Source: Minisyncoccota bacterium
GTDB lineage: Bacteria; Patescibacteriota; Minisyncoccia; Phycocordibacterales; CAIJYI01
Assembly (NCBI GenBank): GCA_023229825.1
Contig: JALNYN010000002.1
Coordinates: 17,789-81,788, forward strand
DNA: 64,000 nucleotides
Direction of reading: 5' to 3'
Shown here: positions 8,385 to 64,000 of the stretch, one piece after another
How the letters are laid out: the number at the start of each line of letters is the position of its first letter
Numbering within the stretch: position 1 is the first letter of the stretch
Program-made: the position numbers and the translations under genes
Notes under the pieces: model-generated
Databases searched by the model: none
What the model was told of the DNA's origin: nothing
Seen by the model: only the letters and a program-made list of their open reading frames with translations

Positions 8385-8457
8385 TAAAGAGGTCTATCAA
8401 AAAACAACGCGAGAAACTCGTGTTGTTCGTTTAATTGTTCCCTTGTTCGTATCCGTT

Positions 8458-12629: not shown

Positions 12630-12633
12630 AAAA

Positions 12634-12718
12634 TGATTTACGGATTTAATGATTTATAGATTTAAGAATACGATATGGATCGTAAATCCGTAAATCCGTA
12701 AATCCTTAAATCTGTAAA
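12634..12718. repeat. Inverted arrays of the GATTTACG 8-mer in the rnpA-yidD spacer
   Basis: Left gatttacggatttaatgatttatagatttaag. Right cgtaaatccgtaaatccgtaaatccttaaatctgtaaa is the reverse-complement array. Same 8-mer as the tandem array at 61295-61384. Confidence 0.8.
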
Positions 12719-12723
12719 ATATT

Positions 12724-16720: not shown

Positions 16721-16721
16721 A

Positions 16722-17339
16722 CTAATCATTGAGATTTTTTGGCAAAGGTATTCCGTTGGGGCAGAAACTGAGATGATAGTCTGTACCGGCAGCTTTTTCA
16801 CTTACGGTAAAAGGAACGGTAAGCGCGACGTAGAGTTTGCATGCATCCTCTTTTGTGATCTCCAGTTTATCCAGAAAAGCCTGCTCAGCTTCTTCTCTTG
16901 TGATATAAAGATCGCCGCCCTCCAAGCTGATGTAAAAACTCTGATACTTTGCGTAGAACATGAAACTGTAGTTTACTCCTTCTTTAACTACGGCGTCATT
17001 ATCTTTATCGATGATCCTTGTGTAAGGGCTGAGATAGAAATTTTTCATTGAGAGCGTTTCCCCTTCCATGGTGGTCACTTTTATATTTTCAGGCGATTCC
17101 GCTTTTTTGGGCGCTGTCGACGTGCTCGTTTCATCCGGTTTTGCGGCGGCTGGCTTAGGAGTGGATCCGTTATTTTTTTGACTTACCGGAAAAGTGGGGT
17201 AATTAGTGTCGGATGGCTGTACTTCCGGAGCGTTTTTTTGCATTTTCCAATAAATGAATCCGCCGATGATGAGGATAACCGCCAAAATGTTGAGGGTGAT
17301 AATGATCTTTTTATTCATAGAGATCGATATTAAAAACAC
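16722..17339 (-). CDS. Secreted protein (N-terminal TM/signal anchor), paralog of 13003..13491
   Basis: 205 aa; MNKKIIITLNILAVILIIGGFIYW...; C-terminal homology to the 13003 product (GTDYHLSFCPNGIPLPKNL). Translationally coupled to pilin paralog 2. Confidence 0.6.
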   Translation of the reverse strand: MFLISISMNKKIIITLNILAVILIIGGFIYWKMQKNAPEVQPSDTNYPTFPVSQKNNGSTPKPAAAKPDETSTSTAPKKAESPENIKVTTMEGETLSMKNFYLSPYTRIIDKDNDAVVKEGVNYSFMFYAKYQSFYISLEGGDLYITREEAEQAFLDKLEITKEDACKLYVALTVPFTVSEKAAGTDYHLSFCPNGIPLPKNLND

Positions 17340-18287: not shown

Positions 18288-18317
18288 ATTTTCGGCTTCA
18301 CCGGCTGATTTTAAGTT

Positions 18318-18437
18318 AAAATTTAAAATGAAAAACTAAAAACGACAAGGTAAAATTAAAAAGACCACAAAACACTATTTGGAAATAATTTTTCCTTTTT
18401 AATTGTCGTTTTTAGTTTTTCATTTTTCAATTTTAAT
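18318..18437. repeat. ~30-bp-arm inverted repeat built from A-rich heptamers (ttaaaatttaaaatgaaaaactaaaaacgacaa ... ttgtcgtttttagtttttcatttttcaattttaa)
   Basis: Near-perfect arms separated by ~52 nt. The 26-mer ttgtcgtttttagtttttcattttt recurs at 33301-33327. Related A-rich heptamer arrays at 10196-10245, 12960-12985, 23128-23160, 23920-23950, 24925-25055 and 25484-25515. Confidence 0.8.
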
Positions 18438-18489
18438 TGAATAAACATTAAACAAGATCTATTTGTGTAAGCAGGTATGATTCTCGTCC

Positions 18490-23175: not shown

Positions 23176-23248
23176 CCCGGGCAACGACCCGGGATCCACG
23201 TTGTTACTGTATTGGACGACGTGGATTCCGGATCAAGTCCGGAATGAC
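23167..23248. repeat. Family-C double-hairpin element, complete copy
   Basis: cgttgtcatcccgggcaacgacccgggatccacgttgt (stem atcccggg/cccgggat) + spacer + acgtggattccggatcaagtccggaatgacg (stem attccgg/ccggaat). Overlaps the annotated 5' end of virB4. Confidence 0.85.
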
Positions 23249-23266
23249 GGAATAATAAAGGACGAA

Positions 23267-23917
23267 TTAATGTACATTTTCGAGAGGGATCGGTTTATCG
23301 ACCTCGCCCGGATTAAATATTTTATAAAAAAGTTCGACGATCTCTTCCGTTCCGAGCTGTGCTACGCGTATTCCGAATCGCGATAATCCTTGTTCGATCA
23401 CCGAAACCCTCTGCTCTATTTGTGTCTTGCTTTCTTCGAAGTTCTCCAGCCATTCTTTTGTTTTTGCCGTTGCGGGAGTTCCTCCTCCGGAAGTGAAGCT
23501 CCATTTGCTTTTAACGCTGGAACTTATGTTCGATGCATACGGAACGACCACGAAGAAGCTTTTAGACATAATATTTGTGGAGTCCGTAAAATTCTTAATA
23601 AAGTCGATGTATTCGCGTGTCTGTATCCGCATAAGCTCGTTGATCTGGTCTCTTTCCTTTTCCTCCAAAAACGCGATATACGGGCGAATATCCAAACGGC
23701 GCGATTGAATATAGAATTGGATGGAAAATTCGAGCGAATTGAGAAAATTCTGGAATTGACCGATGATGGCCTCCTGTTCGTCTTGCGATTTAAGCGCTAT
23801 GTTCAAAGAAGAAGTCATAAGAACAGCGCGAAAAGAATTGTCTTTCATGATGACGATCCCGTCGCGTATCTCTTTGATCGGTATGAAGTCTTGAGCTGGT
23901 TTAGATTTTTGAGCCAT
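23267..23917 (-). CDS. Hypothetical cytoplasmic protein in the T4SS-like cluster
   Basis: 216 aa, no TM, no recognised motif. Confidence 0.4.
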   Translation of the reverse strand: MAQKSKPAQDFIPIKEIRDGIVIMKDNSFRAVLMTSSLNIALKSQDEQEAIIGQFQNFLNSLEFSIQFYIQSRRLDIRPYIAFLEEKERDQINELMRIQTREYIDFIKNFTDSTNIMSKSFFVVVPYASNISSSVKSKWSFTSGGGTPATAKTKEWLENFEESKTQIEQRVSVIEQGLSRFGIRVAQLGTEEIVELFYKIFNPGEVDKPIPLENVH

Positions 23918-23962
23918 GTTTCAATTTAAAAAGTAAAAATGAAAAAGTAGATCGTTAAATGG

Positions 23963-24895: not shown

Positions 24896-25057
24896 CCAAA
24901 GTGAATGACGGGGCGGTCGTTGAAAATAGTTAAAAAGTAAAAATGAAAAAGAAAAAACTACAACTAAAAAGTAAAAATTAACACAAAACTCGAGCGAGTG
25001 GTCAATTTTTAATTTTTCCTTATCGTTTTTAATTTTTCGATTTTACTTTTTAGTTTT

Positions 25058-25480
25058 TTATATTGCCTCCTTATATGGATCGACAGGTTTATTGATCTCG
25101 GCGGGCGCTTGTTCCGGTTTTATTTCAAGCTTTTTTTCTTCCGCTGAGTTTGCTTCCGCGGTCATTTTATGGATCTCCATCAAAGAATGACGGACGTTTT
25201 TGAAGATCTTTTCGTTTATTATGCCGGCGATCTCTTTGGCTGTCGGCGCCGGAATATTAAGTGTTTTTTCTACAATGGAAATGAATTTTTGCGGAGGGGT
25301 GGCTCCCAGCATAAGCATCCCGACTTCCGCCGAAAGATCGCCGACCTGGTCGATGTGAAAATGGTATTTTTCCTGTATTCCCTTAAGAACATCCACGGTA
25401 TCCACCGAAGTCATCGCGTCTTTGACATCGTCGGGAAGCTCCGCGAACATTTTATCGAGTTGAGATTTTGTGTAGGGCAT
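25058..25480 (-). CDS. Hypothetical soluble protein
   Basis: 140 aa, acidic, no motif recognised. Confidence 0.4.
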   Translation of the reverse strand: MPYTKSQLDKMFAELPDDVKDAMTSVDTVDVLKGIQEKYHFHIDQVGDLSAEVGMLMLGATPPQKFISIVEKTLNIPAPTAKEIAGIINEKIFKNVRHSLMEIHKMTAEANSAEEKKLEIKPEQAPAEINKPVDPYKEAI

Positions 25481-25561
25481 GTTTCAAATTAAAAACTAAA
25501 AATGAAAAAGGAAAAATTGTTTTAAAATTTACTTTTTTCACACCATTCTCTTAACTATTCT

Positions 25562-33270: not shown

Positions 33271-33334
33271 AGGATCTTGCGGCAATTTTAAATTTTACAT
33301 TGTCGTTTTTAGTTTTTCATTTTTCCTTTTTACT

Positions 33335-36300
33335 TTAAATATACACCACCCTTCCTCTCGTTTCACCTTTCCTTTCCTCTATTTCCACCAGCTCCTCCGG
33401 TATATCATTCAAAAATTCCGATGGTACTGTCATGTTTCTTGAGCCAAAAACGGTTCGTACTGAGGCGTAGGTTAAAAACAGTCTTTGTTTTGCTCGCGTG
33501 ATGGCGACATAAAAAAGCCGCCTCTCTTCTTCTTTGTGGTTCTGTGAATCGCCAGATTCTCCGAAACTTCGATGCGGGAAAAGTCCGTCTTCGAGTCCGG
33601 TAATGAAAACCGTTTCAAATTCCAATCCTTTTGACGCGTGCACGGTCATGAGACGGACGCGCGGTGTATCGATCTTTCCGTGCATGAGCGAATCTTGATC
33701 GCTTGCCAGAGCGGCATCTTCGAGGAGTTTCTGTATTCCCTCTTCCGGCGGATAGGCATCGTATTTTGAAGCCAGAGAAACTAATTCGTAGAGGTTCTCT
33801 ATCCTTTCTTGCTCCTCTTCTCCTCCGAGCGATAACCCCTTTTCCATCCCCGTTTCTTTGAGAATATATTTTACCGTATCGCTCGGTTTTTTTTCGGCGG
33901 CGATAACCCGTATTTTTTCAAGAAGCGCGAAAAAGTCAGAAACTTTTGTTTTTGCCGCCGCTGGGAGCATATCTCTTTGTCCGGCAAGGATCTTTTTCAG
34001 GGTGACTTCCCCGAGGCCTCTTGCTGGAACGTTTATGATGCGTTTCAGATCGAAAGCGCTTTCGGGATTGAATGCGGCGCGAAGATACGCAAGAACATCT
34101 TTCACCTCTTTTCTCTCAAAGAATTTTGTCCCGAGTACCTGATACGGAATGTCGGCGGACAGCATTGCCTCTTCGAGAGCGCGAGATTGATAATTGGCGC
34201 GAAAGAGCACGGCTATATTTTGGTAAGAAACTCCTTTTCTCACAAGTTCTCGCACTTTTTCGGCCACGAAAGAAGCCTCGTCATTTTCGTCGTACGCTTC
34301 ATAAAGCGATATTTGTTCTCCTCCCGGAATTTTGGTAAAGAGATTTTTTGGCACCCTCAGCTTATTTTTTTGAATGACGCTATTTGCCGCCGAAAGGATA
34401 TTCTGTGTGGAGCGGTAATTTTCTTCAAGAAGAACGATCTTCGATCCGGGGTAATCTTTTTCAAAATGAATAATGTTTCTAATGTTAGCGCCTCGCCACG
34501 AATACACGCAATTATGTACCGGTATGGAGTTAACAATATAGTTATGAGTTTTGGCAATATCAAGGTCATAGACCAATCCTTCATATTTTACCCGCTCTAT
34601 CTTTTGAATTTCATCAGTAATTATTTTTCCATTTTGAATGAGCGCAGTTTCCATTTTTTCCCGAAGGCTTGCCGCCGGAAAAAAATTAAATCTCCCTTTT
34701 TCCGTAAGGAGTGCGGTACGATTCAGGATAAGTTTGGGATTGATCGCAAGTATTTTTTGCGCGATATTTTCAGCTTCGCCATAATCCAACTTTGCGATTT
34801 CCAACCGCCAGTCGTCCCTTTTTCCTTTTCTTGTTTTAAAACCCGCCAATTCGAGTTTCTCTTTCAGTTTTTTGTCGGTTGTGTTGATGGAAACGCGGCT
34901 TAACCCGAATGGGTGCAAAACGCTTTTTCTTTTGTCACTGAACATGGTGAGTCGGACGTTGAGTCGATTGTTTTCCGTGTTCCCTTGCGTTGTTCCTTGC
35001 GGGGTGTAGTGTGGAAAATCAAATGAAAGTCCTGTTTCTTCAAAAAGTCGTTTCGCGTTTTTTTCCGTATCTATCATTCCAAATAAATCGTCAATCTGCT
35101 TTTGAGCAAGGGAGAGTTTTCTGCCGATCGTATGGAACACTATCGTTGGAATTCCGTAGAAAAAAGAATAATAGTTTTCCCATAAAATCGCCTCCGGTTT
35201 TGTTTCGCATACTCTTATTACCCACATCCGATCCGCTTTTTCTTGATTGCTTCGCACCAAAAAACCGACCTTTACATCCCCGTTCCCGTTTCCCGGGACT
35301 CGTGCGCTTTTTACCATGCCAACCCGAAATCCTTTCGTTCTTTTGTACATGAGATACACATAATATACGTTGTGTTGAAGTGAAAAACGGGAAAAGAAAA
35401 TATGCTCGGGCGTCGTTTTTATTATTCTCCCGCTTTTTGTTGTGATTTTTATCATATCCCCGTCATATTTTTTCTCTATGACTCGCGTAACTTTTGAGAG
35501 GCAAACATCTCCGTTTCCGGCGGCGCTTTTTACTTCGTCGCCCGTCTTGATATCTTCTATTTTTTTCTCGCCATTTTTGACGGATACTCGCGTATTTTTC
35601 GGAAAACACTGGTCCCCATCGCCGACGACGCAGATGTTTCGGTCTTTTCCGGCGAGCAGTCTTGAAAGTTCGTATTGAACGGTATTCGTGTCTTGATATT
35701 CATCAATGTGCACATAGCGCCACATTTCTTGGTATTTTTCACGGATAGCCTCGTTTTCGCGCAGGAGAAGCAGAGTTTTTAGGAGAAGATCATCAAAATC
35801 GAAAGCCGATGCTTTTTTTGTTCTTTTTTCGTAATCAAGCCACACTTCGGCGACGATGCGCGGGAAAAAAGCGGTGTTGGAATTCGCGTAAAAGGTCTCT
35901 GCTGAAACACACTCTCCTTTTTGCCGCGAAATAATACTTTGTATCTTTTTCGGATCGAATTGCTTCGGATCGAGATTCCTTGCTTTTATGGCATCTTTGA
36001 TAAGCGAACGAGAATCGTTTTGATCTAAGATCGTAAAGTGCTTCGGAAGGCCGAGCGCTTCGTTCTCTTTTCGAAGGATATATACTCCAAGCGAATGAAA
36101 GGTCCCGATAAACGGTTCGTTGCCGTATCCGATGATATTTTCTTTTTGAAGGAGCGTGTTTATCCTTCCCCTCATCTCTTGCGCAGCTTTATTGGTGAAT
36201 GTTACGGCGAGTATTTGATGCGCGGGAACACCGCTTTGTATGAGCTGAATGATCCTGTGCGTCAAAGTTTTTGTTTTTCCGGCCCCCGCTCCGGCAACGA

Positions 36301-42869: not shown

Positions 42870-42913
42870 TATAAAACAAAACAGGCGAACAATTCGCCTG
42901 TTTTTTCTTGTTT

Positions 42914-42948
42914 ACGTCATTCCGGCCCGCGAGCCGGAATCCACGTCG
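42914..42948. repeat. Family-C-related hairpin element (acgtcattccggcccgcgagccggaatccacgtcg) between convergent genes
   Basis: Same cgtcattccgg...ccggaatccacg frame as 58128-58161 and the second hairpin of 23167-23248. Confidence 0.75.
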
Positions 42949-43029
42949 CGAATCTAAGTCGATCGACAAAGGCGAAGGTATAAAACAAAACACCATTAAT
43001 TATGGTGTTTTGAGGATAAAAATTTCCTT

Positions 43030-50639: not shown

Positions 50640-50800
50640 TCTGAAAATTTGCCCTTATGGTGCAAAATTCCTAATTCCTAATTCCTAATTTCCAATTTCT
50701 AATAAAATGTCCAATTACAAAATTTCAAACCGTTTTTATATTTAGTCATTGGACATTTTATTAGAAATTTGAAATTGGGAATTGGAAATTATTTAACAAA
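50640..50800. repeat. CCAAT-rich imperfect palindrome (arms share 24-bp perfect ccaatttctaataaaatgtccaat / attggacattttattagaaattgg)
   Basis: Lies between two (-) genes. A related CCAAT-unit palindrome is at 12120-12230 after rpmH. Confidence 0.7.
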
Positions 50801-54450: not shown

Positions 54451-54542
54451 CGGATTCTAGTACTGAAATATGATCGATCGTATTTCAATCCTATGATCCG
54501 CCGGCCACGATTAAACCTATAATACACTCTTCAAAAGTCGCT

Positions 54543-54620
54543 TGTCGTCATCCCGGGCAACGACCCGGGATCCATGTTATACCGCCGAACATGGATTCCG
54601 GATCAAAGTCCGGAATGACA
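54543..54620. repeat. Family-C double-hairpin element, complete copy, upstream of pnp
   Basis: tgtcgtcatcccgggcaacgacccgggatccatgtt ... catggattccggatcaaagtccggaatgac. Confidence 0.85.
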
Positions 54621-54788
54621 AAAATACGAATAAAACGACTTTTGAAAGAGCACTAATGAAACCACTATATCAATGTTTTATAAAGAAAACAAAGTTGACC
54701 CAGCTAGAAAATCGTGTTTTTTGGAGATGTTGACAAAAACAAATTTTTATCTTAAGATGTTTCAGGAATTGTCCAAAGGAGAACAAAC

Positions 54789-55052
54789 ATGCCATACGTT
54801 AAAATTAACGGAGAACAACAGTACTTGCTTGATAAACACGAATTTGAGCGTCTTGTTTCAGAAAGAAGCAAAATAAGCGCCGAAATCGAGGCTCTCAAGG
54901 CGGTCCGTTTCGTGGAAAATGTCTTTTTTACCGGAAGACTTTCGCTTGAAATTTCTTCCCGTGAACAAAAAATAAAGTCAATTGATCTCGCCCTTGCTGA
55001 TCATCGCAAAAAACTCGGCATCGAAACGCCGACCATTCATACGGAATTATAA
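54789..55052 (+). CDS. Small hypothetical protein
   Basis: 87 aa; terminator 55062-55088 follows. Confidence 0.4.
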   Translation: MPYVKINGEQQYLLDKHEFERLVSERSKISAEIEALKAVRFVENVFFTGRLSLEISSREQKIKSIDLALADHRKKLGIETPTIHTEL

Positions 55053-55130
55053 AGTTTCGAAACACCGCGAGTATTCGCGGTGTTTTTTAATTCCTTGCCG
55101 TATTCCCTTCTCTCCATTATTCTTAATGTT

Positions 55131-55904
55131 ATGAAAATCATTTCTTGGAATGTGAACGGTCTGCGCGCCGTACATAATAAAAACTTGTTTCTCCCCTTTG
55201 TTTTGAGGGAAAAACCTGACATTTTGTGTCTTCAGGAGATCAAAGCGCAAGCGCTGCAATTACCCGCAGAAATAGCCGTCATGCCCGGATATCATGCCTA
55301 TTTCTCGTCCCCAAAGGTGAAAAAAGGATACAGCGGCGTTGCACTGTATTCAAAAACAGAGCCGGAAAAAGTCGAATATGGCATAGGTATTCCCAGATTC
55401 GATGACGAAGGACGGATCCTTATCGCCTATTATCCGGAATTCACGCTTCTCAATATCTATTTTCCGAACGGCGGAAGCGGTGAGGAACGACTGAAGTATA
55501 AACTAGACTTTTATGATGCGTTCCTCTTATTTATTGATAAGTTAAAAAAAGGAGGACAGAAGATTATTTTCTGTGGAGACATCAACACGGCTCATGAAGC
55601 GATCGATCTTGCACGTCCGAAACAGAATGAAAACAACACCGGCTTCCTTCCTGAAGAACGCGCATGGATCGACGAGGTGATCGCGCACGGATATTCCGAC
55701 ATCTTCAGAGGCCAATATCCGACTAAAAAAGATGTCTATACTTTTTGGGATATGAAGACGGCGTCGAGAGAAAGAAATGTAGGCTGGAGGATCGATTATT
55801 TTTTCATAAGCAACAATATTTCTCCGAAAAAAATATCAACAGGAGTGTTATCAAATGTATACGGTTCGGATCACTGTCCAATTTCCCTTTTATTAGAGCC
55901 GTAG
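55131..55904 (+). CDS. xth: Exodeoxyribonuclease III (AP endonuclease, Xth family)
   Basis: MKIISWNVNGLRA, LCLQE, GDINTAHE, SDHCP; start taken at the internal Met (the track ORF starts at 55080). Confidence 0.9.
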   Translation: MKIISWNVNGLRAVHNKNLFLPFVLREKPDILCLQEIKAQALQLPAEIAVMPGYHAYFSSPKVKKGYSGVALYSKTEPEKVEYGIGIPRFDDEGRILIAYYPEFTLLNIYFPNGGSGEERLKYKLDFYDAFLLFIDKLKKGGQKIIFCGDINTAHEAIDLARPKQNENNTGFLPEERAWIDEVIAHGYSDIFRGQYPTKKDVYTFWDMKTASRERNVGWRIDYFFISNNISPKKISTGVLSNVYGSDHCPISLLLEP

Positions 55905-55932
55905 TTTAGATTGTCTTTTAAGGAAATTTAGT

Positions 55933-55951
55933 TATCCACAGTTATCCACAG
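55933..55951 (+). promoter_or_regulatory. Two tandem perfect consensus DnaA boxes (TTATCCACA x2, 10-bp spacing) outside oriC
   Basis: gTTATCCACAgTTATCCACAg at 55932-55952. A further perfect box (tgtggataa) is at 61477-61485. Confidence 0.6.
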
Positions 55952-56197
55952 TAAAGGACTTGCACATAAAGGACACGCGAGTATAATAATAATCAGATAG
56001 TGATTTACAAATAGATTACCAAAGGAACAATATGTTCCACCGCGATAACCATCGCAAACAATCTATAAAAACACAATCAAAAAACAAATCGCATTAGTTC
56101 TTTTCTCTAAAAGACAAATAAATATACAGCAAGGGCCATCTTATCGTGGCCCTTTACTTTATTCTGTGAGCATACGGCGAGTCGTCTTTTTGGCGAT

Positions 56198-56277
56198 CTT
56201 CGTTTTGTTTTTTAAAAATTATGTCGGGGCAGTACTACTGTACAGCCCCGACATAATTTTTAAAAAACAAAACGAAT
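56198..56277. repeat. 33-bp perfect inverted repeat (ttcgttttgttttttaaaaattatgtcggggc ... gccccgacataatttttaaaaaacaaaacgaa) with a 14-nt loop
   Basis: Located in a ~520-bp non-coding stretch with the tandem DnaA boxes. Confidence 0.85.
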
Positions 56278-56427
56278 CTCATCCAAAAATCCCGCCTCTT
56301 GAAGGTTATAACTTTTACGAGTAAAAAATTATTAGAACAAAACAATATTCATTGACAAGCTTTGTTTTATCCAATAATCTTGTAGTGGATACGCAAAACT
56401 TCCAAACAAGCAGAAAAGGAGGAATTT

Positions 56428-56739
56428 ATGTCATTTTATAGAGATGTAATGACAAAAATTGTGCACGATAATGAAGTGTTTAACTATAGTACAACAGAAA
56501 AACGCCTCACCAGTTATTTTTATATAACACATGTAGCCGAGAAAGAAGAAGTTCAAAACGCTATCCACACGTTAGTTGCGATCGGTCTTGTTAAATGCGT
56601 TCTACGCAGAGGTCCATCTCACTGGGATGTGGCATATCGCGAAGGAACCAGCGATGAGATCGTTCCTACCGCATTCGCTCTTCGGCTTATGAAAAAATAT
56701 GTATTGAGGAATTATTTCATGGATAAAGGGTTATATTAA
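56428..56739 (+). CDS. Hypothetical protein
   Basis: 103 aa; terminator 56743-56770 (aagggg-ctagata-gcccctt + T8) shared with the convergent cca. Confidence 0.4.
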   Translation: MSFYRDVMTKIVHDNEVFNYSTTEKRLTSYFYITHVAEKEEVQNAIHTLVAIGLVKCVLRRGPSHWDVAYREGTSDEIVPTAFALRLMKKYVLRNYFMDKGLY

Positions 56740-56768
56740 CCAAAAAGGGGCTAGATAGCCCCTTTTTT

Positions 56769-58589
56769 TTATTTCACTCCGTGTTTTTTTCGTATTTCCT
56801 TCAATTCTTCTTCTTCCACCTCGGCTTTCTTCTCTTTCCCTTCTTCCCCTAGTTTTTTAAGCTCTTCTTCCGGGAGTTTAATGAGTTCCAGCGTGCGTTT
56901 TTCAAGATATTCTTCGGTATTTACCTTCGGATCTTCTAAAACCTCCTCGAGTAAGGCGTGAAGGATCAAGCCGAGTTTTGGTCCGGGTGTTTCATGTGTA
57001 ACCTCCATTATCCTCGTTCCGTCAATTTTAAGCATCCCCACAGACACCGGCGAGCGCATCGCCTCCTCGATCATAGCCTCATATTTACGCAAACGATAGG
57101 GTTTTTCAACCGGTCGTCCCATTCCCGTACGGTCGCAGGCGCGAATCTTCATAAGATCCCACACATTTTCAGCGCCGACATTAGCCACGATCCTTCTGAC
57201 TGCTGAAAGCGTTATTTTCTCGATATCTGAGAAAAACATGTGATATTTCACGAGAGCCGAAACCGTCTGGGTTAGTTTCACGGGAAACTTTAATCGTTCC
57301 ATTATCTTCTTTGAAACTCTGCCTCCGACAACGTCATGCCCATAAAACGTCCATTTATCCTTCTCTTGTGACCATCTGCGCGTCTCAGGTTTGGAAATGT
57401 CGTGCAATAAAGCCGCAAGCCGAATGTGGAGCGGCCATCCGTGTTTCACCGCAGTATCAAGTGCGCGCAGATTGTGCTCCCAGATCGTATAAATATGCAT
57501 GCCTTTCTGCTCAAGACCGATCCCTTTTTCCAGTTCCGGAACGATAAATCGAAGCAAATTAAGCTCATGAGCCAAGATAATACCGCTCATGGCGTTATCC
57601 GACATAAGTATTTTTATGAATTCATCACGAATTCTTTCACATGAAACACTTTTCAAACTATCCGAAAGCCGAATAATGGCCTCTTTTGTCTCCTTTTCGA
57701 TCATAAAACCAAGCTGTGCCGAGAAACGAACCGCGCGCAAAAGGCGGAGGGCATCCTCACCAAAACGTTCCTTCGGCTTCCCTACTGTTCTGATTATTTT
57801 GCTATCAATGTCATTTTGTCCTTTATAAAGGTCAACGAGCGTTCCGTCGAACGGATTATAAGCCAAAGCGTTTATGGTAAAATCTCGCCGTTTCAGGTCA
57901 TCCTCAAGTTTTTTACTAAAGATCACATGATCCGGGTGCCGGCTGTCGCTATAGTCAGATTCAGTGCGGTAAGGCGTAACCTCCACGATGACGGTTTCGT
58001 CTGAAACATAGTTGCCTGTTTCATGTGCAACATTAAGTTCCTCTTTTTCCACTTGTACTGAGTTATGCCGAAGGGTTTCATCCTCCTCCGCTGAAGCTAT
58101 GGAGGACATGTGTGTAACTTCCCCACCCGTCATTCCGGACAGGGATCCGGAATCCACGTCGTTTGTTGCCTTCCTTGAGCCATGCCGAAGGGTTTCATAT
58201 GTAACGTTATTTTCCTCTTTTCCTTCAGTTTCACGTGACACTATTTGATTGATCGCTCGCGTGGCTCGCTGGGGCGTAGGGGCCAGTCTGAGGACTGGCG
58301 TATGAAGGTCCGAGGTTTCGACACTTTCCCCTGTTTCATGTGTAACATCATCTTCTGTTTTTATCACTACGCCAACGGTTCCGTAGTCATTTTCATAAAA
58401 TGTCTTCTCAAATAACCCGATTATTTCTTCCGGTACGGCATTCGTGGTAACATCCCAATCTTTAGGGATTCTTCCCAAAATCAGATCTCGCACGCACCCT
58501 CCAACCAAATACGCCTCAAAACCGGCACCCCGCAAGGTCTCGGTTACACGTGTAACATATGACGGAATTTTCGATTTTAAGTCGTTCAT
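56769..58589 (-). CDS. cca: CCA-adding enzyme/poly(A) polymerase-family tRNA nucleotidyltransferase with HD domain, carrying a ~115-aa in-frame insertion built from repeat elements
   Basis: N-terminal LVGGCVRDLILGRIPKDWDVTT (NTase glycine motif); after the insert RRDFTINALAYN and HD-domain LAALLHDISKPETR. Insert translated from 58010-58350 contains repeat-derived peptides PTPQRATRAINQIV (family-B element 58247-58282), DVDSGSLSGMTGG (family-C hairpin 58128-58161) and repeated VTHETG/ETLRH units. Confidence 0.85.
   Translation of the reverse strand: MNDLKSKIPSYVTRVTETLRGAGFEAYLVGGCVRDLILGRIPKDWDVTTNAVPEEIIGLFEKTFYENDYGTVGVVIKTEDDVTHETGESVETSDLHTPVLRLAPTPQRATRAINQIVSRETEGKEENNVTYETLRHGSRKATNDVDSGSLSGMTGGEVTHMSSIASAEEDETLRHNSVQVEKEELNVAHETGNYVSDETVIVEVTPYRTESDYSDSRHPDHVIFSKKLEDDLKRRDFTINALAYNPFDGTLVDLYKGQNDIDSKIIRTVGKPKERFGEDALRLLRAVRFSAQLGFMIEKETKEAIIRLSDSLKSVSCERIRDEFIKILMSDNAMSGIILAHELNLLRFIVPELEKGIGLEQKGMHIYTIWEHNLRALDTAVKHGWPLHIRLAALLHDISKPETRRWSQEKDKWTFYGHDVVGGRVSKKIMERLKFPVKLTQTVSALVKYHMFFSDIEKITLSAVRRIVANVGAENVWDLMKIRACDRTGMGRPVEKPYRLRKYEAMIEEAMRSPVSVGMLKIDGTRIMEVTHETPGPKLGLILHALLEEVLEDPKVNTEEYLEKRTLELIKLPEEELKKLGEEGKEKKAEVEEEELKEIRKKHGVK
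58010..58350. repeat. Composite repeat insertion inside cca: short GTTACACATGAAAC-type units, a ~112-bp internal tandem duplication (gccgaagggtttcat... at 58066 and 58178), one family-C hairpin and one family-B element
   Basis: Seen directly; stays in-frame across the whole insertion. Confidence 0.8.
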
Positions 58590-58672
58590 ATTTTTGTGTT
58601 CTCATTATACATTATTTTTGTTCACTTTTCCACATTGATTCTCTTGAACCAAGGAAGTATAATAAATGTAAC

Positions 58673-59347
58673 ATGAAATCCAAGGTTTCAGAAAAAATGA
58701 AAGTAATTGAGCTAAGAAAACAAGGGCTCAGTTATAAAGAAATACTAGAAATAGTTCCGGTTGCAAAAAGTTCGCTATCAGGATGGTTAACAAATCTTGA
58801 CCTAACGGATGAACAAATTTCTGCATTAAAAAAGAGGGCAGTGGATGGACGCACTCTTGGGGTATTTAATGCTGTTATTTCAAACAGAAACAGACGAATC
58901 GCTCGAGAAGCATCAATTTTTAAAATTGCAAAAATAGAATTTGAAAAGTTTAAAGATGATCCGTTTTTTGTTTTGGGGGTAAGTCTTTACTGGGCGGAAG
59001 GAACTAAAAAATTTTCTGAGTTTCAGTTTATTAATTCAGATCCGCAAATGATTAAAATTATGGTTCGTTGGATAAAAGAATATATGGGTTTCAGCAAAGA
59101 GTCTTTAAAAATAAGGTTATTTATACATCAACCATACGCAGACGAAAAATGTGAGGAATTTTGGTCTGATATTTTAGGAATTCCATCAAATACATTTTAT
59201 AAAACCATATATAAACAAACGCCGCATAATGTTAAAAAGAACCCTAAATACAAAGGTTGTTTAAGAATTGGTATCGGTAAAATCGAAAATCTGAGAAAAG
59301 TGCTTGCATGGCAACGATTATTATGTGATTATTATTCTGTAAGCTAA
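58673..59347 (+). CDS. HTH-domain protein, paralog of 60087..60770; possible degenerate LAGLIDADG-type endonuclease
   Basis: N-terminal resolvase-type HTH VIELRKQGLSYKEILEIVPVAKSSLSGWL; central FFVLGVSLYWAEGTKK (compare LFIAGIMLYWGEGDKV in the paralog). Start at ATG 58673; the track ORF starts at 58559. Confidence 0.4.
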   Translation: MKSKVSEKMKVIELRKQGLSYKEILEIVPVAKSSLSGWLTNLDLTDEQISALKKRAVDGRTLGVFNAVISNRNRRIAREASIFKIAKIEFEKFKDDPFFVLGVSLYWAEGTKKFSEFQFINSDPQMIKIMVRWIKEYMGFSKESLKIRLFIHQPYADEKCEEFWSDILGIPSNTFYKTIYKQTPHNVKKNPKYKGCLRIGIGKIENLRKVLAWQRLLCDYYSVS

Positions 59348-59356
59348 ATGAATTAC

Positions 59357-59428
59357 GTCCTCGTAGTGAAACGGATATCACGCAACGCTTCGAACGTTGT
59401 ATTCCAGGTTCGAGTCCTGGCGAGGGCA
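59357..59428 (+). tRNA. tRNA-Arg (anticodon UCG)
   Basis: Manual fold: acceptor gtcctcg/cgagggc (one G-U), D-stem gtga/tcac, anticodon stem caacg/cgttg with loop cTTCGaa, T-arm ccagg-ttcgagt-cctgg, discriminator A; no encoded CCA. Confidence 0.7.
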
Positions 59429-59580
59429 CAGTAGCGAAGCGGATGTGGCCTCGAGCAAGTGACCTGCGTCACTTGCGCCCAGGACTCGAAAGGGTTTTCG
59501 TTATTTGTGAGGATCGTAATCCGAACAAATCGGAAACCACCCGCGACGGTAGTCGAGAGTCCTGGCGAGGGCACTATTTG

Positions 59581-59634
59581 GTTGATCGCTCGCGCGGCTC
59601 GCTGGGGCGTAGGGAGTCGGCTGTGGGCCGACAG
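59581..59634 (+). repeat. Family-B GC-rich element (gttgatcgctcgcgcggctcgctggggcgtagg + hairpin gtcggctgtgggccgac)
   Basis: Conserved 34-nt 5' part shared with 58247-58300 and 63362-63414, each followed by a different short hairpin. A duplicate of the tRNA-Arg 3' end (tcgagagtcctggcgagggcac, 59555-59576) lies just upstream. Confidence 0.8.
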
Positions 59635-59670
59635 GTGAAAACCAATGGTTTTCATACTTTCCTTTCGTGA

Positions 59671-59994
59671 ATGAAAAAAAATAATATGGCTAAAACACTC
59701 AAAGAACTACAAGAAATAATGGTTATTCAATTGAAACGCCGTGGATTTTATCCGAAAGATGATAAAGAAGTTTTGTTACGATTAGGAGAAGAGGTTGGAG
59801 AAGTTATGGAGGCGGTTCGAGAAAATCAAAGTAAGGAGGATTTGAGTCATGAAATGGTGGATGTTTTTTGGAACCTTCTTCGTTTGGCGGAATTGAAAGA
59901 TATAGATTTGGAAAAAGCGTTTATTGAAAAATGGGAAATAAACGAAAAACGTCCGATAAACAAAGTCGTTATGGATATTTCTGAGAATAGTTAA
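59671..59994 (+). CDS. MazG-like nucleotide pyrophosphohydrolase domain protein
   Basis: LRLGEEVGEVMEAVRENQSKEDLSHEMVDVFWNLLRLAE matches the MazG/NTP-PPase helical core. Confidence 0.6.
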   Translation: MKKNNMAKTLKELQEIMVIQLKRRGFYPKDDKEVLLRLGEEVGEVMEAVRENQSKEDLSHEMVDVFWNLLRLAELKDIDLEKAFIEKWEINEKRPINKVVMDISENS

Positions 59995-60086
59995 TTTTAA
60001 AAAATTATGGATAAGTATTATATCCACAATTTTTTATAGTAAAAACCGAAACCCCGTGATATACTAATACTATAACAAATAAAAAA

Positions 60087-60770
60087 ATGAGAAAAGATAA
60101 AGAAAAAGCGATACAATTAAGGCACGAAGGGAAGAGCTATCGAGAAATTAAGAAAGAATTGAGTGTTCCTTTGAGTACACTTTCAGAATGGCTCGCTCCA
60201 TACGATTGGTCGAAAAATATTGCGCATTCATTAGCGGAGATCGCAAAAGAAAAAAATACCATTCGCCTCCGTTCTTTAAATGGAATTCGGAATGAACACT
60301 TAAGACACGCTTATGAGGATGCACGCAGTGAGGCGGTGGAAGAATTTCAGGTTTTAAAATATCACCCATTATTTATAGCTGGAATTATGTTGTATTGGGG
60401 AGAAGGAGATAAAGTAACCAAAGGTCACGTTAAACTAACCAATACCGACACGGCAATGGTAAAAATTTATGTTAATTTTCTTTTAAGTGTTTGCCGAGTA
60501 GAAAAAGAAAAAATACGATGTTCTTTGTTGCTCTATCCGGATCTTGATGACGAAGTGTGTAAAAACAACTGGAGAAAAAATGCCGGACTCGAAAACATTC
60601 ATTTTGGCAAAAGTACGGTAATACAGGGAAGACATAAAACAAAGAGATTACAAACGGGAATTTGTATAGTAAGCGTTTCAAGTAGTTATTTTAAGGAAAA
60701 AATATTAATTTGGACAAAAATGCTTGCCGAAGAACTTATATCTCCAGATTATTATAATTTTAGGTTGTAA
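60087..60770 (+). CDS. HTH-domain protein, paralog of 58673..59347
   Basis: AIQLRHEGKSYREIKKELSVPLSTLSEWL; LFIAGIMLYWGEGDK. Confidence 0.4.
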   Translation: MRKDKEKAIQLRHEGKSYREIKKELSVPLSTLSEWLAPYDWSKNIAHSLAEIAKEKNTIRLRSLNGIRNEHLRHAYEDARSEAVEEFQVLKYHPLFIAGIMLYWGEGDKVTKGHVKLTNTDTAMVKIYVNFLLSVCRVEKEKIRCSLLLYPDLDDEVCKNNWRKNAGLENIHFGKSTVIQGRHKTKRLQTGICIVSVSSSYFKEKILIWTKMLAEELISPDYYNFRL

Positions 60771-60829
60771 TAATTTTATTTTTAAGTATACTTAGATTTA
60801 TACAAAATACAAAATTGCAAATACTTGAC

Positions 60830-60900
60830 GCGGGTATAGTTTAGTGGTAGAATATGACATTGCCAATGTTAAGGCGCGGTTTCGATTACCGCTACCCGCA
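60830..60900 (+). tRNA. tRNA-Gly (anticodon GCC)
   Basis: Manual fold: acceptor gcgggta/tacccgc, anticodon stem tgaca/tgtta with loop tTGCCaa, T-arm gcggt-ttcgatt-accgc, discriminator A. Terminator 60908-60934 follows. Confidence 0.75.
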
Positions 60901-60983
60901 CAGTGAGAAAAAACCGCTATATAGCGGTTTTTTTGTTACGCGGGAAACTTTATTTCAGAGATCGTTTCGTGTATACTATAACT

Positions 60984-61295
60984 ATGGAAATTAAACCTGA
61001 ATTTGAATCCGCCCTTATATTGCATAACGTTCGCGAATTTGTCATGGATAAGAGAAAGTTTGACGAATGCATACCGGAAAACCTGAAAGAGGGAAGAGAG
61101 TATGGTTTTTTGGTGTCGGGACAGCGAAACTATTGGATCCTTGGAAAATTTCCGTTACACGAGAAACTGGAGGACGGAACCACATCAGAAGACCCACGCG
61201 CCATCATCAATATTTTTGAGGTAACTCACTTTATCGATAACGGACAGATATGCACGAAGGGGAAATATAAGATACTGCAGGTTGTTGGACAATAG
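60984..61295 (+). CDS. Hypothetical protein
   Basis: ~103 aa from the internal ATG (MEIKPEF...); the track ORF start overlaps the tRNA-Gly terminator. Confidence 0.4.
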   Translation: MEIKPEFESALILHNVREFVMDKRKFDECIPENLKEGREYGFLVSGQRNYWILGKFPLHEKLEDGTTSEDPRAIINIFEVTHFIDNGQICTKGKYKILQVVGQ

Positions 61296-61384
61296 GATTT
61301 ACGGATTTACGGATTTACGGATTTACGGATTTACGGATTTACGGATTTACGGATTTACAGATTTAAGGATTTACGATTTAAGAA
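61295..61384 (+). repeat. Tandem array of the 8-mer GGATTTAC (8 perfect plus ~3 degenerate units)
   Basis: ggatttac x8 then agatttaaggatttacgatttaag; the same unit forms the inverted arrays at 12634-12718. Confidence 0.9.
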
Positions 61385-61690
61385 TGTGGATGGACACTCT
61401 GTCCGGCGATAGAACTGATTTTGTAGCTGATTCCGTTCGTTTTCCCTTATACTTATACTAATCCCTTATACTTTTGTGTGGATAACTCAGGGGATATGTG
61501 TATAAAAGACATTGAAATTTGTCCTTCGCAAGCATTCATCTTTTGACCGATTGTCAATAAATGTGGCTAAAAATAACAATATTTGTTTCGGTCGTCAAGG
61601 AAAAAGTCCTTCATTATGAAGGAAATAAATCGACGTTTCACATGAAACGTCGATTTTGTTAATTTTTCTCAAAAGGAGTATTCTTTTGAT

Positions 61691-62206
61691 ATGAAGAAAG
61701 TGAAAAAGAAGACTGAAAAACGAAAAATAGGGGATATGGGGGAGAAGATCGCCGGACGTTTTTTGCAATCCAAGGGGTTTGAAATTGTTAGTTGGAATTA
61801 CTTAAAACCATGGGGAGAAATTGATATTATCGTTCGGAAAAAACGGAAGATACATTTTATTGAAGTAAAGACAGTATCCGTTACCGGCTTTGTTTTTTTG
61901 CAAGAAACACCGAATTTTTTACACAAATGTAAAACTTTTGTGGCAGACAAAATATCTCGTCCGGAAATGGCTTATAGTATTCGAGAAGTTTCAGGTGAAA
62001 CATTATCTCTCGAAATTGACGGTTATCGTCCGGAAGATAATTTGCACCCATGGAAACTTAAACGGTTAAAACGAGCCATTCAGTCATATTTAGCCGAAAA
62101 AAGGATCTCGGAAGAAGATGACTGGCAATTTGATGCAGTGACGGTAAGGATCGACGAGGAAGGAAAGACCGCCCTCGTCGAATATCTGGAGGATATTATT
62201 CTATAG
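61691..62206 (+). CDS. yraN: YraN/UPF0102-family endonuclease-like protein with C-terminal extension
   Basis: GDMGEKIAGRFLQSKGFEIVSWNYLKPWGEIDIIVRKKRKIHFIEVKT matches the family core. Confidence 0.65.
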   Translation: MKKVKKKTEKRKIGDMGEKIAGRFLQSKGFEIVSWNYLKPWGEIDIIVRKKRKIHFIEVKTVSVTGFVFLQETPNFLHKCKTFVADKISRPEMAYSIREVSGETLSLEIDGYRPEDNLHPWKLKRLKRAIQSYLAEKRISEEDDWQFDAVTVRIDEEGKTALVEYLEDIIL

Positions 62207-62247
62207 ATCTCCCAACGTTGGAAAAAGAGGGATCTTAAGATCGTGTA

Positions 62248-62673
62248 TTACCGATTGAGGTAGGTAATCGTTAATTGGAGCACGGTCGCGAAGGAAACCC
62301 AGAGGAAATAGGGAGCCTGAAGATAAGCGACCCATTTCACGTGAGGATATATGGCGATGATCGCCCAGATGAGCGTGCCGAGGACGAGGAGGATGTCAAG
62401 GGATGCGAGAAGGTTATTTTTTAGACCGAACTGAATGGGGGAGAAAGCAAGATTGAAAACAAGATTCAAAATAAAAGGAATAGCGATGGCGAACGGTAAT
62501 TCTTTGTTCCAAGCCATGATGAACACTTTCCCGAATGAAATTATGATCAGGGCATAAAGAAAGGTCCAAGCCGGCCCAAAAACCCACGAGGGCGGCGCCC
62601 ATGAAGGTTTTATTAATTGAGAATACCATGTAATTGTCTTATCCATAGCTTTACTATAACATAGTAGCTTCAT
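62248..62673 (-). CDS. tspO: TspO/MBR-family tryptophan-rich membrane protein
   Basis: 141 aa, 5 TM, Trp-rich (WYSQLIKPSWAPPSWVFGPAWTFLY). Confidence 0.75.
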   Translation of the reverse strand: MKLLCYSKAMDKTITWYSQLIKPSWAPPSWVFGPAWTFLYALIIISFGKVFIMAWNKELPFAIAIPFILNLVFNLAFSPIQFGLKNNLLASLDILLVLGTLIWAIIAIYPHVKWVAYLQAPYFLWVSFATVLQLTITYLNR

Positions 62674-62724
62674 ACTGTGAATTTTCTCTTTACTTTTTAC
62701 ACATTAGTGCTATACTGTAAGTGT

Positions 62725-62845
62725 ACGGCGGGGACGCGAACAGAAGAGGGGATGTCACAGGACGAAGGGTCTCCCGCCACGAAAGCAACCTGAAAAGGGT
62801 TTCTAGCGCGGTTCCTGAACTTGCGTCCGCCGTACACAAAAGAGC
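62725..62845 (+). ncRNA. Candidate structured small RNA (~120-nt extended hairpin), identity unresolved
   Basis: GC-rich island in an AT-rich region. Terminal pairing gtgtacggcgg/ccgccgtacac and ggacgc/gcgtcc with internal loops; no ORF; followed by a T-run (gggtgttttttt). Could not be matched by eye to SRP, 6S, tmRNA or RNase P consensus. Confidence 0.3.
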
Positions 62846-62914
62846 ATCCCTTAGGGTGTTTTTTTGTTCCTTTTATGGTAGGATTAAGCGAAAGTCGAAA
62901 AAAGTTAAAAGTAC

Positions 62915-63360
62915 CGGTAGTATCCTGCTTCGCCAGAGGCTACGCAGGACGCGGCGTCTGCTTTGGGGTCGAATGTATAATTGTTTCTTTAAGCTCTTCT
63001 ATAAAATAATAACTACAGTGTCGGGGCGTAGTATACCGGTAGTACGTCTGCTTTGGGGTTCGTTTTTATTGTCGGGGTGTAGTATACCGGTAGTACGTCT
63101 GCTTTGGGAGCAGATAGACCGAGTTCGATTCTCGGCACCCCGACAATAAAAAAGAACCGGAAACATCCTAAATGTTTCCGCGGCCCGAAGGGAGATAGAC
63201 CGAGTTCGATTCTCGGCGCCCCGACACTGTAGTTATTTTTAGATCAGAGGAGCTTAAAGAAACAATTATATATTTGACCGGAAGTGTCTAAACACTTCCG
63301 TGGCCCGAAGGGAGATAGACCGAGTTCTCCGCCAGCTGGCGGATCGGGGCCCCGACAATC
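62915..63360 (+). repeat. Cluster of tRNA-Pro-derived fragments and short hairpins surrounding the intact tRNA-Pro
   Basis: 5'-half copy 63020-63058 (gtcggggcgtagtataccggtagtacgtctgctttgggg). 3'-part copies 63186-63226 and 63303-63356 (…gggagatagaccgagttc…ccccgaca), each preceded by a ccggaa…ttccgg hairpin. Further fragment 62917-62970. ctacagtg/cactgtag at 63013 and 63228. Confidence 0.8.
63073..63143 (+). tRNA. tRNA-Pro (anticodon UGG)
   Basis: Manual fold: acceptor cggggtg/caccccg, D-stem gtat/gtac, anticodon stem tctgc/gcaga with loop tTTGGGa, T-arm ccgag-ttcgatt-ctcgg, discriminator A. Confidence 0.7.
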
Positions 63361-63361
63361 T

Positions 63362-63414
63362 GATTGATTGCGAGCGCGGCTCGCTGGGGCGTAGGAGTCA
63401 GTCTGCTGACTGAC
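63362..63414 (+). repeat. Family-B GC-rich element (gattgattgcgagcgcggctcgctggggcgtagg + hairpin gtcagtctgctgactgac)
   Basis: Third copy of the conserved 5' part, with its own hairpin. Confidence 0.8.
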
Positions 63415-63535
63415 GGGAAAAACCTGCGGGTTTTTCGAAAAAAACGTGAAATAAAAATATATGAGTAACGAAACAAGTAAAAATCATCTTTTGTAAGAAA
63501 TTACGATCTTGTTCGTCTTTACAGGTGTACAACCC

Positions 63536-64000
63536 ATGCAAGAAAAGGAAAATCAGTTTTTGGTAAGTTATGATGCGCATGCGGACGCGCTCTTTCGGTT
63601 TGCCTATTTTCAGGTGTCGGACAGGGAAGCGGCGAACGATATTGTGCAGGATGTTTTTATGGAGACATGGAAATACCTTTCAGAAGGAGGAGAAATAGAG
63701 AATTTTCGGGCTTTTCTGTATCGCGTTGCACGAAATCGAATCATCGATCATTATCGAAAACATAGATCTCAGTCGCTTGATGCCATTCAAGAAAGCGGAA
63801 TGGATTTTTCAGACGAGCGAAGCAGAGAAGTATCGGAAGCCCGGTCGGAAGCGATGCATATACTCCGACTCCTTGATCGCGTCGATAAAAAATATCGGGA
63901 ACCGGTATTACTCAGGTATATGGAAGGAATGGGGGTGAAAGAGATCGCACAAATTTTGGATGAGTCCGAAAGTAACACGTCGGTTTTGATCCATCGCGGG
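63536..64000 (+). CDS. RNA polymerase sigma-70 factor, ECF subfamily (3'-partial, runs off window end)
   Basis: Region 2 DIVQDVFMETWKY...FLYRVARNRIIDHYRK and region 4 PVLLRYMEGMGVKEIAQIL; ATG at 63536; no stop before 64000. Confidence 0.8.
   Translation, partial: MQEKENQFLVSYDAHADALFRFAYFQVSDREAANDIVQDVFMETWKYLSEGGEIENFRAFLYRVARNRIIDHYRKHRSQSLDAIQESGMDFSDERSREVSEARSEAMHILRLLDRVDKKYREPVLLRYMEGMGVKEIAQILDESESNTSVLIHRG

Follow-up and report, generated by a model that had tools for sequence, protein, structure and literature searches.

parS-like sites in the cca gene of an uncultivated Paceibacteria bacterium and a mosaic insert in the head domain of its product

A 64-kb stretch of DNA from an uncultivated Paceibacteria bacterium of the Candidate Phyla Radiation (CPR), called the window below, was analysed around its cca gene, which encodes a class II CCA-adding enzyme (tRNA nucleotidyltransferase). 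Short palindromic words close to the consensus of parS, the chromosomal centromere site of the ParB/Spo0J system, were found in the conserved parts of cca, in a long in-frame insert within it and near the adjoining tRNA genes. The reading that we slightly favour is a composite one, in which an array of parS-like sites would have expanded in a permissive loop of Cca and trapped other palindromic elements, the cca/tRNA region being a ParB-loading zone. To judge from the sequence, cca probably doubles as part of the chromosome partition site.

parS-like sites in and around cca

The chromosomal parS consensus is TGTTNCACGTGAAACA and has been given for many phyla (PMC7022226). With this 16-mer, six distinct sites at two or fewer mismatches were found in the window (0.13 expected), five of them in cca. 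With the 14-mer GTTTCATGTGTAAC, ten matches at two or fewer mismatches were found (0.40 expected). Every match lay within 56.9–62.0 kb of the 64 kb, and the two best sites (one mismatch each) were both inside the loop insert. The sites are listed below with the peptide that they encode, where there is one; no strand is assigned to them.

58543–58556: palindrome VTRVT (GTTACACGTGTAAC) in the conserved N-terminus of Cca, with codon-level conservation in relatives
58333–58346: loop unit VTHET; the 16-mer at 58332–58347 is TGTTACACATGAAACA, with one mismatch to TGTTNCACGTGAAACA
58229–58242: loop unit VSRET (GTTTCACGTGACAC), one mismatch to the 14-mer core, abutting the 5' end of a family B element
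58192–58205: loop unit VTYET (GTTTCATATGTAAC), degenerate
58075–58118: split loop unit, GTTTCAT (58075–58081) plus CATGTGTGTAAC (58107–58118), broken near its centre and read directly from the sequence
58018–58031: loop unit VAHET; the 16-mer at 58017–58032 is TGTTGCACATGAAACA, with one mismatch to the consensus
57994–58007: degenerate last loop unit VSDET (GTTTCGTCTGAAAC), at a position common to short-loop relatives (VSPET/VSGET)
57634–57647: site VSCER in conserved coding sequence
57275–57288: site FPVK in the other frame, GTTTCCCGTGAAAC on the cca strand, one mismatch
56989–57002: site EVTHETPGP in the conserved C-terminal domain
61635–61648: intergenic site CGTTTCATGTGAAACG, one change; the syntenic perfect core CGTTTCACGTGAAACG is present in the related loci L002, L003, L005 and L006
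61988–62001: site VSGET, in frame, in an inserted stretch of the nearby YraN/UPF0102 gene

Related cca loci were compared in three sets: 61 loci with 10 kb on either side of cca for motif counts, 53 GTDB species loci for loop lengths and 66 loci for gene searches. The 61 loci contained 114 cores at one or fewer mismatches to GTTTCACGTGAAAC, with about 0.2 expected by our own calculation. Nearly all of these cores lay between −2.5 and +2 kb of the cca start, and none lay from −10 to −2.5 kb. At two or fewer mismatches, 244 sites were counted in the cca zone versus 18 in the remaining 577 kb. Unbiased 8-mer enrichment of the zone upstream of cca against the flanks returned tRNA words together with TCACGTGA/CACGTGAA/ACGTGAAA, at about 20-fold.

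Within cca, the word occurred in two reading frames. In frame 0 it was read as V-[ST]-[RH]-V-T in the N-terminal part, as V-x-x-E-T in the loop and as VTRET/VTHET near nt 1230, and in frame 2 as FH[GA]K, FPVK and FLVK. Between genes, a conserved site (CGTTTCACGTGAAACG) was present 1–3 kb upstream of cca in relatives. Locus L020 had four parS or parS-like sites in 170 bp of intergenic DNA directly after cca (11469–11637), of which two were perfect cores and one of these two a perfect 16-mer. An extra perfect 16-mer at 12673 fell within the XerC/D-like recombinase gene next to cca and is translated there as VSRET.

Codon analysis of motifs picked by peptide only showed that their codons were nearly invariant. 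In V..ET (n = 56), valine was GTT in 50/56 (background 0.33), glutamate was GAA in 56/56 (background 0.62), arginine was CGT in 17/19 (background 0.23) and histidine was CAT in 22/22 (background 0.54). FLVK was encoded by TTT CTC GTG AAA in 16/16 cases (background of CTC for leucine 0.20), and the codons of FPVK were fixed in 9/9; in FH.K, the F, H and K codons were fixed in 11/11 and glycine was GGG in 8/8. Mere lack of divergence is argued against because the control motif LHV[KR] used many codons and was not fixed. The N of the consensus falls on the variable residue S/T/P/A (TCA/ACA/CCA/GCA). The Spo0J protein of Bacillus subtilis contains the peptide ...QNVPRETKKK, and an intragenic parS, TGTTCCACGTGAAACA, was reportedly described there by Lin and Grossman in 1998; the same peptide appears in Spo0J because the same DNA word is translated. 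Since silent codons were fixed in about 60 species and the word recurred in two frames and in intergenic copies, the comparison points to selection on the DNA word and not on the peptide.

These data also bear on whether the inserted peptide is functional, for example with its VTHET repeats as a binding or regulatory tail. The frame has been kept open and V-x-x-E-T was present in all loop-bearing relatives, both in favour of such a function. We nevertheless regard it as very improbable, since the codons were invariant and not the residues alone, the same DNA word gave FLVK, FPVK or FHGK in the other frame and also lay between genes, loop length and order varied greatly between proteins of about 75–80% identity, and the loop was predicted to be disordered and had no Pfam match. 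A preliminary description of this DNA had allowed some function for the inserted peptide, which the low predicted local distance difference test scores (pLDDT <50) and the hypervariability between close relatives make unlikely. It had also taken the short GTTACACATGAAAC-like units for selfish repeats; this does not agree with their match to the parS consensus, their confinement to a zone of about 5 kb, the silent positions fixed in about 60 species and their occurrence in two frames and between genes.

The loop insert of Cca and repeat families B and C

The gene and its insert were located as follows.

56769–58589, minus strand: cca, an open reading frame (ORF) of 606 aa for an HD-domain class II CCA-adding enzyme
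57993–58346, minus strand: in-frame insert of 354 nt/118 aa (aa 82–199) at the tip of a head-domain beta-hairpin, predicted to be disordered

Pfam analysis of Cca revealed the PolyA_pol head in two stretches (PF01743, 1.9e-35), the RNA-binding neck (PF12627, 1.2e-18), HD and tRNA_NucTran2_2. In homologue alignments, the catalytic motifs GGCVRD, DWD, RRDFTINA and EDALRLLRA and the HD pair fell in invariant or near-invariant columns; GGCVRD and DWD were invariant, while RRDFTINA (motif B) and EDALRLLRA (motif D) were conserved. The best NCBIfam matches were CCA tRNA nucleotidyltransferase models. NF009814 matched in three stretches with 262.7 bits, below its equivalog cutoff of 290, a deficit consistent with the split head domain. 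For annotation, this means that a split head can drop a protein under the equivalog cutoff, and that repeat peptides are not to be read as domains. The nearest solved enzymes were 6ibp (4e-48) and 1miv (3e-44), class II CCA enzymes with an HD domain. They have the head, neck, body, motifs A–E and HD domain in common with the window Cca, which has 124 residues at the place of their 3-residue beta-turn.

A second contig (ENA ERZ27249449 k141_1432657, 46 kb) showed 100% identity to the window over 5.8 kb (54769–60589). On its sequence features, cca is an intact CCA-adding enzyme gene with predicted activity. The gene is taken as real, intact and selected to stay open because its domains and motifs are complete, the frame of the insert is free of stops and the second contig is identical. 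An assembly artefact or a pseudogene would be in keeping with the ability of regions rich in repeats and palindromes to mislead short-read assemblers, and with the NCBIfam score under the cutoff. However, the split head domain can account for that score, comparable inserts were found across many independent assemblies, and the insert was open in the cca frame alone with every catalytic motif in place; with the 5.8 kb identical on the second contig, this explanation is extremely unlikely. The misassembly, frameshift or pseudogene that the preliminary description had wished to exclude was not borne out over 54769–60589.

The insert replaces the 3-residue beta-turn of the nucleotidyltransferase head, between flanking strands at residues 72–77 and 199–206. 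In the homologue alignment, the extra sequence lay between GTVGVVIKTEDD and VIVEVTPYRTE. In an AlphaFold2 prediction with 60 homologues, the core reached pLDDT >90, whereas residues 81–196 stayed at <50 and had no secondary structure. No stop codon was found in the cca frame of the 354 nt, versus 3–9 in each of the other five frames, and this openness was reached by 0.25% of shuffles only. No Pfam family matched aa 81–199. An intein or self-splicing intron was considered and rejected, as the insert had no Hint or endonuclease domain in Pfam and no RNA fold in Rfam (56700–64000).

On the cca strand, the loop was composed in order of VTHET, a family B element (antisense), VSRET, VTYET, a family C hairpin, the hairpin-split unit, VAHET and the degenerate VSDET. 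The units, palindromes of 14–16 bp translated in frame as V-[S/T/P/A]-x-E-T, make up the backbone of the loop. In the split unit, an insert of about 25 nt with a TCCTCC/GGAGGA stem lay between the halves. Tandem Repeats Finder (TRF) detected no tandem repeat in 57900–58450, and the sole direct repeat in the loop was one of 23 nt (58059–58081 and 58176–58198, 91% identical, 117 nt apart).

Much of the preliminary description agrees with these results. The in-frame mosaic of three repeat types, put at about 340 bp, corresponds to the 354-nt insert with B, C and the 14-mers all present; B and the peptide said to arise from two further copies were recovered in three copies, and the C hairpin was located at 58126–58160. 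The proposed selection for frame-preserving insertion accords with zero stops in the cca frame against 3–9 elsewhere, and the disordered surface loop with the pLDDT <50 predicted for residues 81–196. Its placement of the insert between the nucleotidyltransferase head and the HD domain needs correction: the multiple alignment with relatives that it had called for put the insert at aa 82–199, between strands 72–77 and 199–206, so that the head itself is split, and showed the turn enlarged differently in relatives. The internal tandem duplication of about 112 bp was not recovered, TRF being negative and only the 23-nt direct repeat, 117 nt apart, being present. The short units do occur, but not as five: six or seven lay in the loop (one split by a hairpin), and four more in conserved parts of the gene.

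Nor was the case a single one, as had been implied by calling such an insertion in an essential enzyme unusual: at least 10 of the 120 closest homologues and 5 of the 53 GTDB species loci had other large inserts at the same beta-turn. Among the best 120 database homologues, most were 490–499 aa long and the closest were 540–641 aa. The closest homologues had their extra residues at this one turn, differing in length and order, and the recurring pieces were V[STPA]xET units, B-like PTPQRxxxAINQIV, C-like GSLSGMT and others. In the 53 GTDB species loci, loop length was usually 11–12 aa, with 15–37 aa in several and 68–162 aa in L001–L004; by the same measure, the window loop was 127 aa. Loop length and order diverged strongly even between Cca proteins about 75–80% identical. 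The head-domain turn is a lineage-wide insertion hot spot.

Copies of families B and C were mapped in the window.

58239–58329, plus strand: family B, antisense to cca, read ...SDLHTPVLRLAPTPQRATRAINQI, with a conserved 40-nt core and two hairpins
59572–59662, plus strand: family B, following a duplicated tRNA-Arg 3' end
63354–63444, plus strand: family B, following a tRNA-Pro-like 3' end
58125–58168, plus strand: family C, a REP-like hairpin read as DVDSGSLSGMTGG, core at 58126–58160
23163–23251, no strand assigned: intergenic inverted doublet of family C, REPIN-like
54539–54623, no strand assigned: intergenic inverted doublet of family C, REPIN-like
42908–42954, plus strand: single intergenic family C copy
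8338–8385, minus strand: single intergenic family C copy

Family B (about 90 nt) consisted of a conserved core of about 40 nt, a first hairpin, a second hairpin (GAAAACC/GGTTTTC) and a T-rich tail. Compensatory stem changes in the first hairpin were read from aligned copies, while RNAalifold left this stem unpaired. Three copies were found in the window, five in relatives and 13 in metagenome loci, and their hairpins covaried. At the two window copies outside cca, spurious ORFs on the minus strand also contained the peptide PTPQRAxRAINQIV. An Rfam search of 56.7–64 kb (gathering thresholds and E ≤5) returned three tRNAs and chance-level matches, and assigned B and C to no known RNA family.

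B usually adjoined a tRNA 3' end. It immediately followed tRNA-Arg in L003 and tRNA-Gly in L005; in L001, L002 and L004, it lay inside the cca loop, antisense and flanked directly by units. An exact 17-mer scan of metagenomes gave 90 stretches, of which nhmmer supported real B on 12 contigs only, the rest being chance. All 13 good metagenome copies on these 12 contigs were intergenic, and two started 2–3 nt inside the 3' ends of tRNA-Ala and tRNA-Tyr. Among the metagenome loci (L090, L083, L099 and L154/L141/L144), L099 had a pair about 110 nt apart, and one homologous context was found on three contigs. B had no terminal inverted repeats. Its 5' end abutted the ...CAC(A) of a tRNA 3' end or a unit, with the junction consensus ...CAC(A)|(T)ATYTGRTTGAT, and identical flanking 14-mers were seen in L004 only. 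The junction would fit a hairpin-adjacent insertion of the Y1-transposase type.

Family C had seven window copies of an imperfect palindrome of about 35 nt (GTCATYCCGG...CCGGRATCCACGT) with compensatory stem changes. Outside cca, the copies of B and C were intergenic or in no long ORF, and neither family was found in frame in other long ORFs. B and C are plausible mobile palindromic elements, whereas the 14-mers are not. Of the composite selfish-element insertion in the preliminary description, the part concerning B and C is supported, and the part that would make a selfish family of the 14-mers is not.

A purely selfish mosaic was weighed against the composite reading. The loop would then be a dumping ground for miniature inverted-repeat transposable elements or repetitive extragenic palindromic (REP) elements, comparable to the Rickettsia palindromic elements (RPEs). 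The 14-mers would be target sites, ends or footprints, selection would merely retain in-frame survivors, and there would be no centromere role. Such an origin agrees with the dispersal of C, a REP/REPIN-like family whose 7 copies are mostly intergenic and include two inverted doublets, and with that of B in metagenomes, where tandem copies occur and the element starts 2–3 nt inside the 3' ends of tRNAs. The B copy between two identical 14-mers in L004 resembles a target duplication, one window unit is split by a small hairpin, and in-frame palindromic elements have been documented (PMC10969869). However, the 14-mer was not dispersed: 57 kb of the window and the outer flanks of the 61 loci were free of it. 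Species without an insert in the loop had it too, at fixed, uninserted positions of cca and with its silent sites fixed. It corresponds to a known protein-binding consensus, and no in-frame copy of B or C was seen in any other long ORF. A purely selfish origin is considered unlikely.

Other repeats of the window were recorded. Duplicated tRNA fragments (the tRNA-Arg 3' end and the 5' and 3' halves of tRNA-Pro) lay at 59430–59575, 63019–63057, 63193–63226 and 63288–63327; these are typical scars of insertion at tRNA genes. Near-perfect palindromes were present at 50672–50791 and 56187–56288, with arms of 58 nt and 49 nt and loops of 4 nt, the second between xth and orf103. AT-rich AAAAAGTAAAAATGAAAAAG-like repeats in both orientations occurred in many intergenic regions (18308–18441, 23111–23161, 23915–23952, 24919–25079, 25478–25528 and 33277–33340) and may be promoter or terminator modules. 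A 300-nt duplication with 88% identity (15372–15671 and 16319–16618) lay in the adjacent ORFs 15099–15782 and 15815–16801, which are probably paralogues. The window also contained a giant ORF of 2579 aa (366–8105, minus strand).

Chromosomal setting and the candidate partition zone

The dnaA gene was located at 10239–11588, with seven DnaA boxes at 9990–10161 between dnaA and the next ORF, and yidC at 14315. DnaA boxes at one or fewer mismatches numbered 41 in the window versus 14 expected. The boxes at 9990–10161 likely mark oriC, and the cca zone is regarded as origin-proximal because it lies about 47 kb from this likely oriC, formed by dnaA and the DnaA-box cluster. The cca zone had first been considered as oriC itself, on account of the strand switch and the sign of the GC skew; this was rejected, as the main DnaA-box cluster sits by dnaA at about 10 kb. 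Between 54.5 and 58.6 kb, where cca borders on the tRNA genes, the genes switch from mostly minus to mostly plus strand and the GC skew becomes positive; an inversion or some local effect may be the cause.

The cca gene is divergent from a conserved cluster of tRNA-Arg(tcg), tRNA-Gly(gcc), YraN and tRNA-Pro(tgg), and broad synteny around cca was limited to YraN and xth. In the composite reading, cca and this divergent tRNA cluster would form an origin-proximal ParB loading zone of small, gene-dense genomes. Additional sites would have found space at the only Cca turn tolerant of extra residues. Palindromes so close together may then cause slippage, unequal recombination or template switching, and such palindrome-driven events would produce both the variation in loop length and the trapping of elements at or inside units. 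The array may attract or retain other palindromic DNA, namely the tRNA-trailer-type B of about 90 nt, the REP-like C and the small hairpin. Purifying selection on the essential enzyme would purge frame-breaking variants, leaving the peptide as a tolerated passenger. A wider claim can be put forward tentatively, as possible rather than probable: in Paceibacteria, the cca coding sequence itself would be the centromere, with ParB-loading sites in silent positions and in the disposable loop, whose array traps mobile palindromes.

Several results weigh against a partition role. No ParB or ParA gene was found in the window or in the 66 loci (±10 kb) when all ORFs of at least 80 aa were searched with a GERRxRA regular expression and by phmmer with Spo0J and Soj, a search confined to the window and these loci. 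Ten further window ORFs of ParB-like size gave no ParB match in Pfam. Clusters of parS usually adjoin parAB. The window had no perfect parS, most loop units carried a central CG>CA/TG change or worse, and many of them may, from their sequence, bind ParB weakly or not at all. Related species are not independent samples, and the codon counts overstate the number of independent events. Finally, the loops of L024, L056 and L042 (26–37 aa) had no parS-like site, and loop growth was therefore not always linked to the motif.

The sites may alternatively be real cis-acting DNA sites for a factor other than ParB, such as a lineage-specific regulator of the cca/tRNA locus or a loader related to the origin or to SMC, or they may serve recombination. 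The DNA-level selection and the clustering would be explained equally, no parAB lies nearby in the window or the 66 loci, the zone contains three DnaA boxes besides an 8-bp tandem array (61277–61570), and a XerC/D-like recombinase gene adjoins cca in L020. However, the identity to the pan-bacterial parS consensus includes its degenerate fifth position, and five to eight sites per coding region are unlike ordinary operators. Such a factor seems distinctly unlikely.

Candidate binders encoded near cca were also rejected. A conserved DNA-binding neighbour was sought, and orf103 (56428–56739) was present in 2 loci only and orf130 in 6. Two paralogous ORFs (58559–59347 and 60087–60770) had an N-terminal helix-turn-helix and a LAGLIDADG-like motif (LYWAEGTK and LYWGEGDK), each just upstream of a tRNA gene. 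As binders of the sites they were not retained, since they were sporadic (8/66 loci), varied in position and orientation, and are more likely mobile; they look like free-standing homing-endonuclease-type mobile genes targeting the tRNA cluster.

The YraN/UPF0102 gene (61691–62206) had a Pfam match over aa 17–67 only (profile 1–47 of 80), followed by about 50 aa that look inserted. This insertion contains the in-frame VSGET parS-like site, read as VSRE[NS] in relatives, and repeats on a smaller scale what was found in cca. At 61277–61378, the parS-like zone also contained about 10 tandem copies of an 8-bp unit, (GATTTACG)n, and the array recurred in inverted orientation upstream of dnaA (12616–12725); it may be an iteron related to the origin or to partition. 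Three DnaA boxes (61477–61570) lay beside the 8-bp array, and two perfect tandem boxes (55932–55950) downstream of xth.

If the zone is bound by ParB, one stretch of DNA would carry both a partition locus and an essential enzyme, a dual coding in which centromere copy number evolves in a protein loop. Expansion and decay of the centromere array would then be visible as changes in protein length, and cca together with tRNA-Arg/Gly would give a sequence-only marker of the partition zone in uncultivated CPR bacteria. One class of lineage-specific protein insertions in CPR would be a by-product of a DNA-level function and not a protein innovation.

Comparison with known systems

Intragenic parS and in-frame palindromic elements (RPEs; PMC10969869) are already known. 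A limited literature search found no housekeeping gene in which several parS-like sites occupy silent positions and are conserved throughout a bacterial class, no in-frame amplification of such sites that lengthens a protein loop and traps repeats, and nothing relevant on parS/ParB in Patescibacteria, Parcubacteria or CPR.

The cca zone resembles chromosomal parS (ParB/Spo0J) in its near matches to the 16-bp palindrome consensus TGTTNCACGTGAAACA, which are perfect in some relatives, and in the clustering of several origin-proximal copies, and it resembles B. subtilis spo0J in having a site within coding sequence, translated there as V-P-R-E-T. Counts of parS have been given as 22 for Myxococcus xanthus, 10 for Corynebacterium glutamicum and 10 for B. 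subtilis, 8 of them in the origin domain (PMC7022226 Table 1). The arrays of these three bacteria resemble the cca zone in having multiple sites near the origin. In contrast to known parS, 3–8 sites lie in one housekeeping gene with silent positions conserved class-wide in two frames, and in one clade the sites have multiplied in frame, making a loop of the protein longer. The cca zone also differs in that parAB is not nearby and most window sites are imperfect. To our knowledge, based on a limited literature search, none of those parS arrays forms an in-frame peptide repeat within an enzyme.

Family C resembles REP/REPIN elements in being a short imperfect palindrome with conserved flanks, mostly intergenic and present as inverted doublets. 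It is unlike them in that one copy is translated inside cca, and no RAYT (Y1) transposase was noticed among the annotated ORFs, although no search was aimed at RAYT.

Rickettsia palindromic elements lie in frame in housekeeping genes, which tolerate them, and their translation gives a conserved passenger peptide (PMC10969869). The cca insert has in common with RPEs and intragenic miniature inverted-repeat elements that small palindromic repeats lie in frame in a housekeeping gene. B and C are likewise dispersed multi-copy palindromic families, but their in-frame insertion was found only in cca and not in many genes. RPEs are spread over dozens of unrelated genes with one element per site, whereas one turn of one gene, together with the smaller YraN case, gathers several families here on a backbone that is not dispersed.

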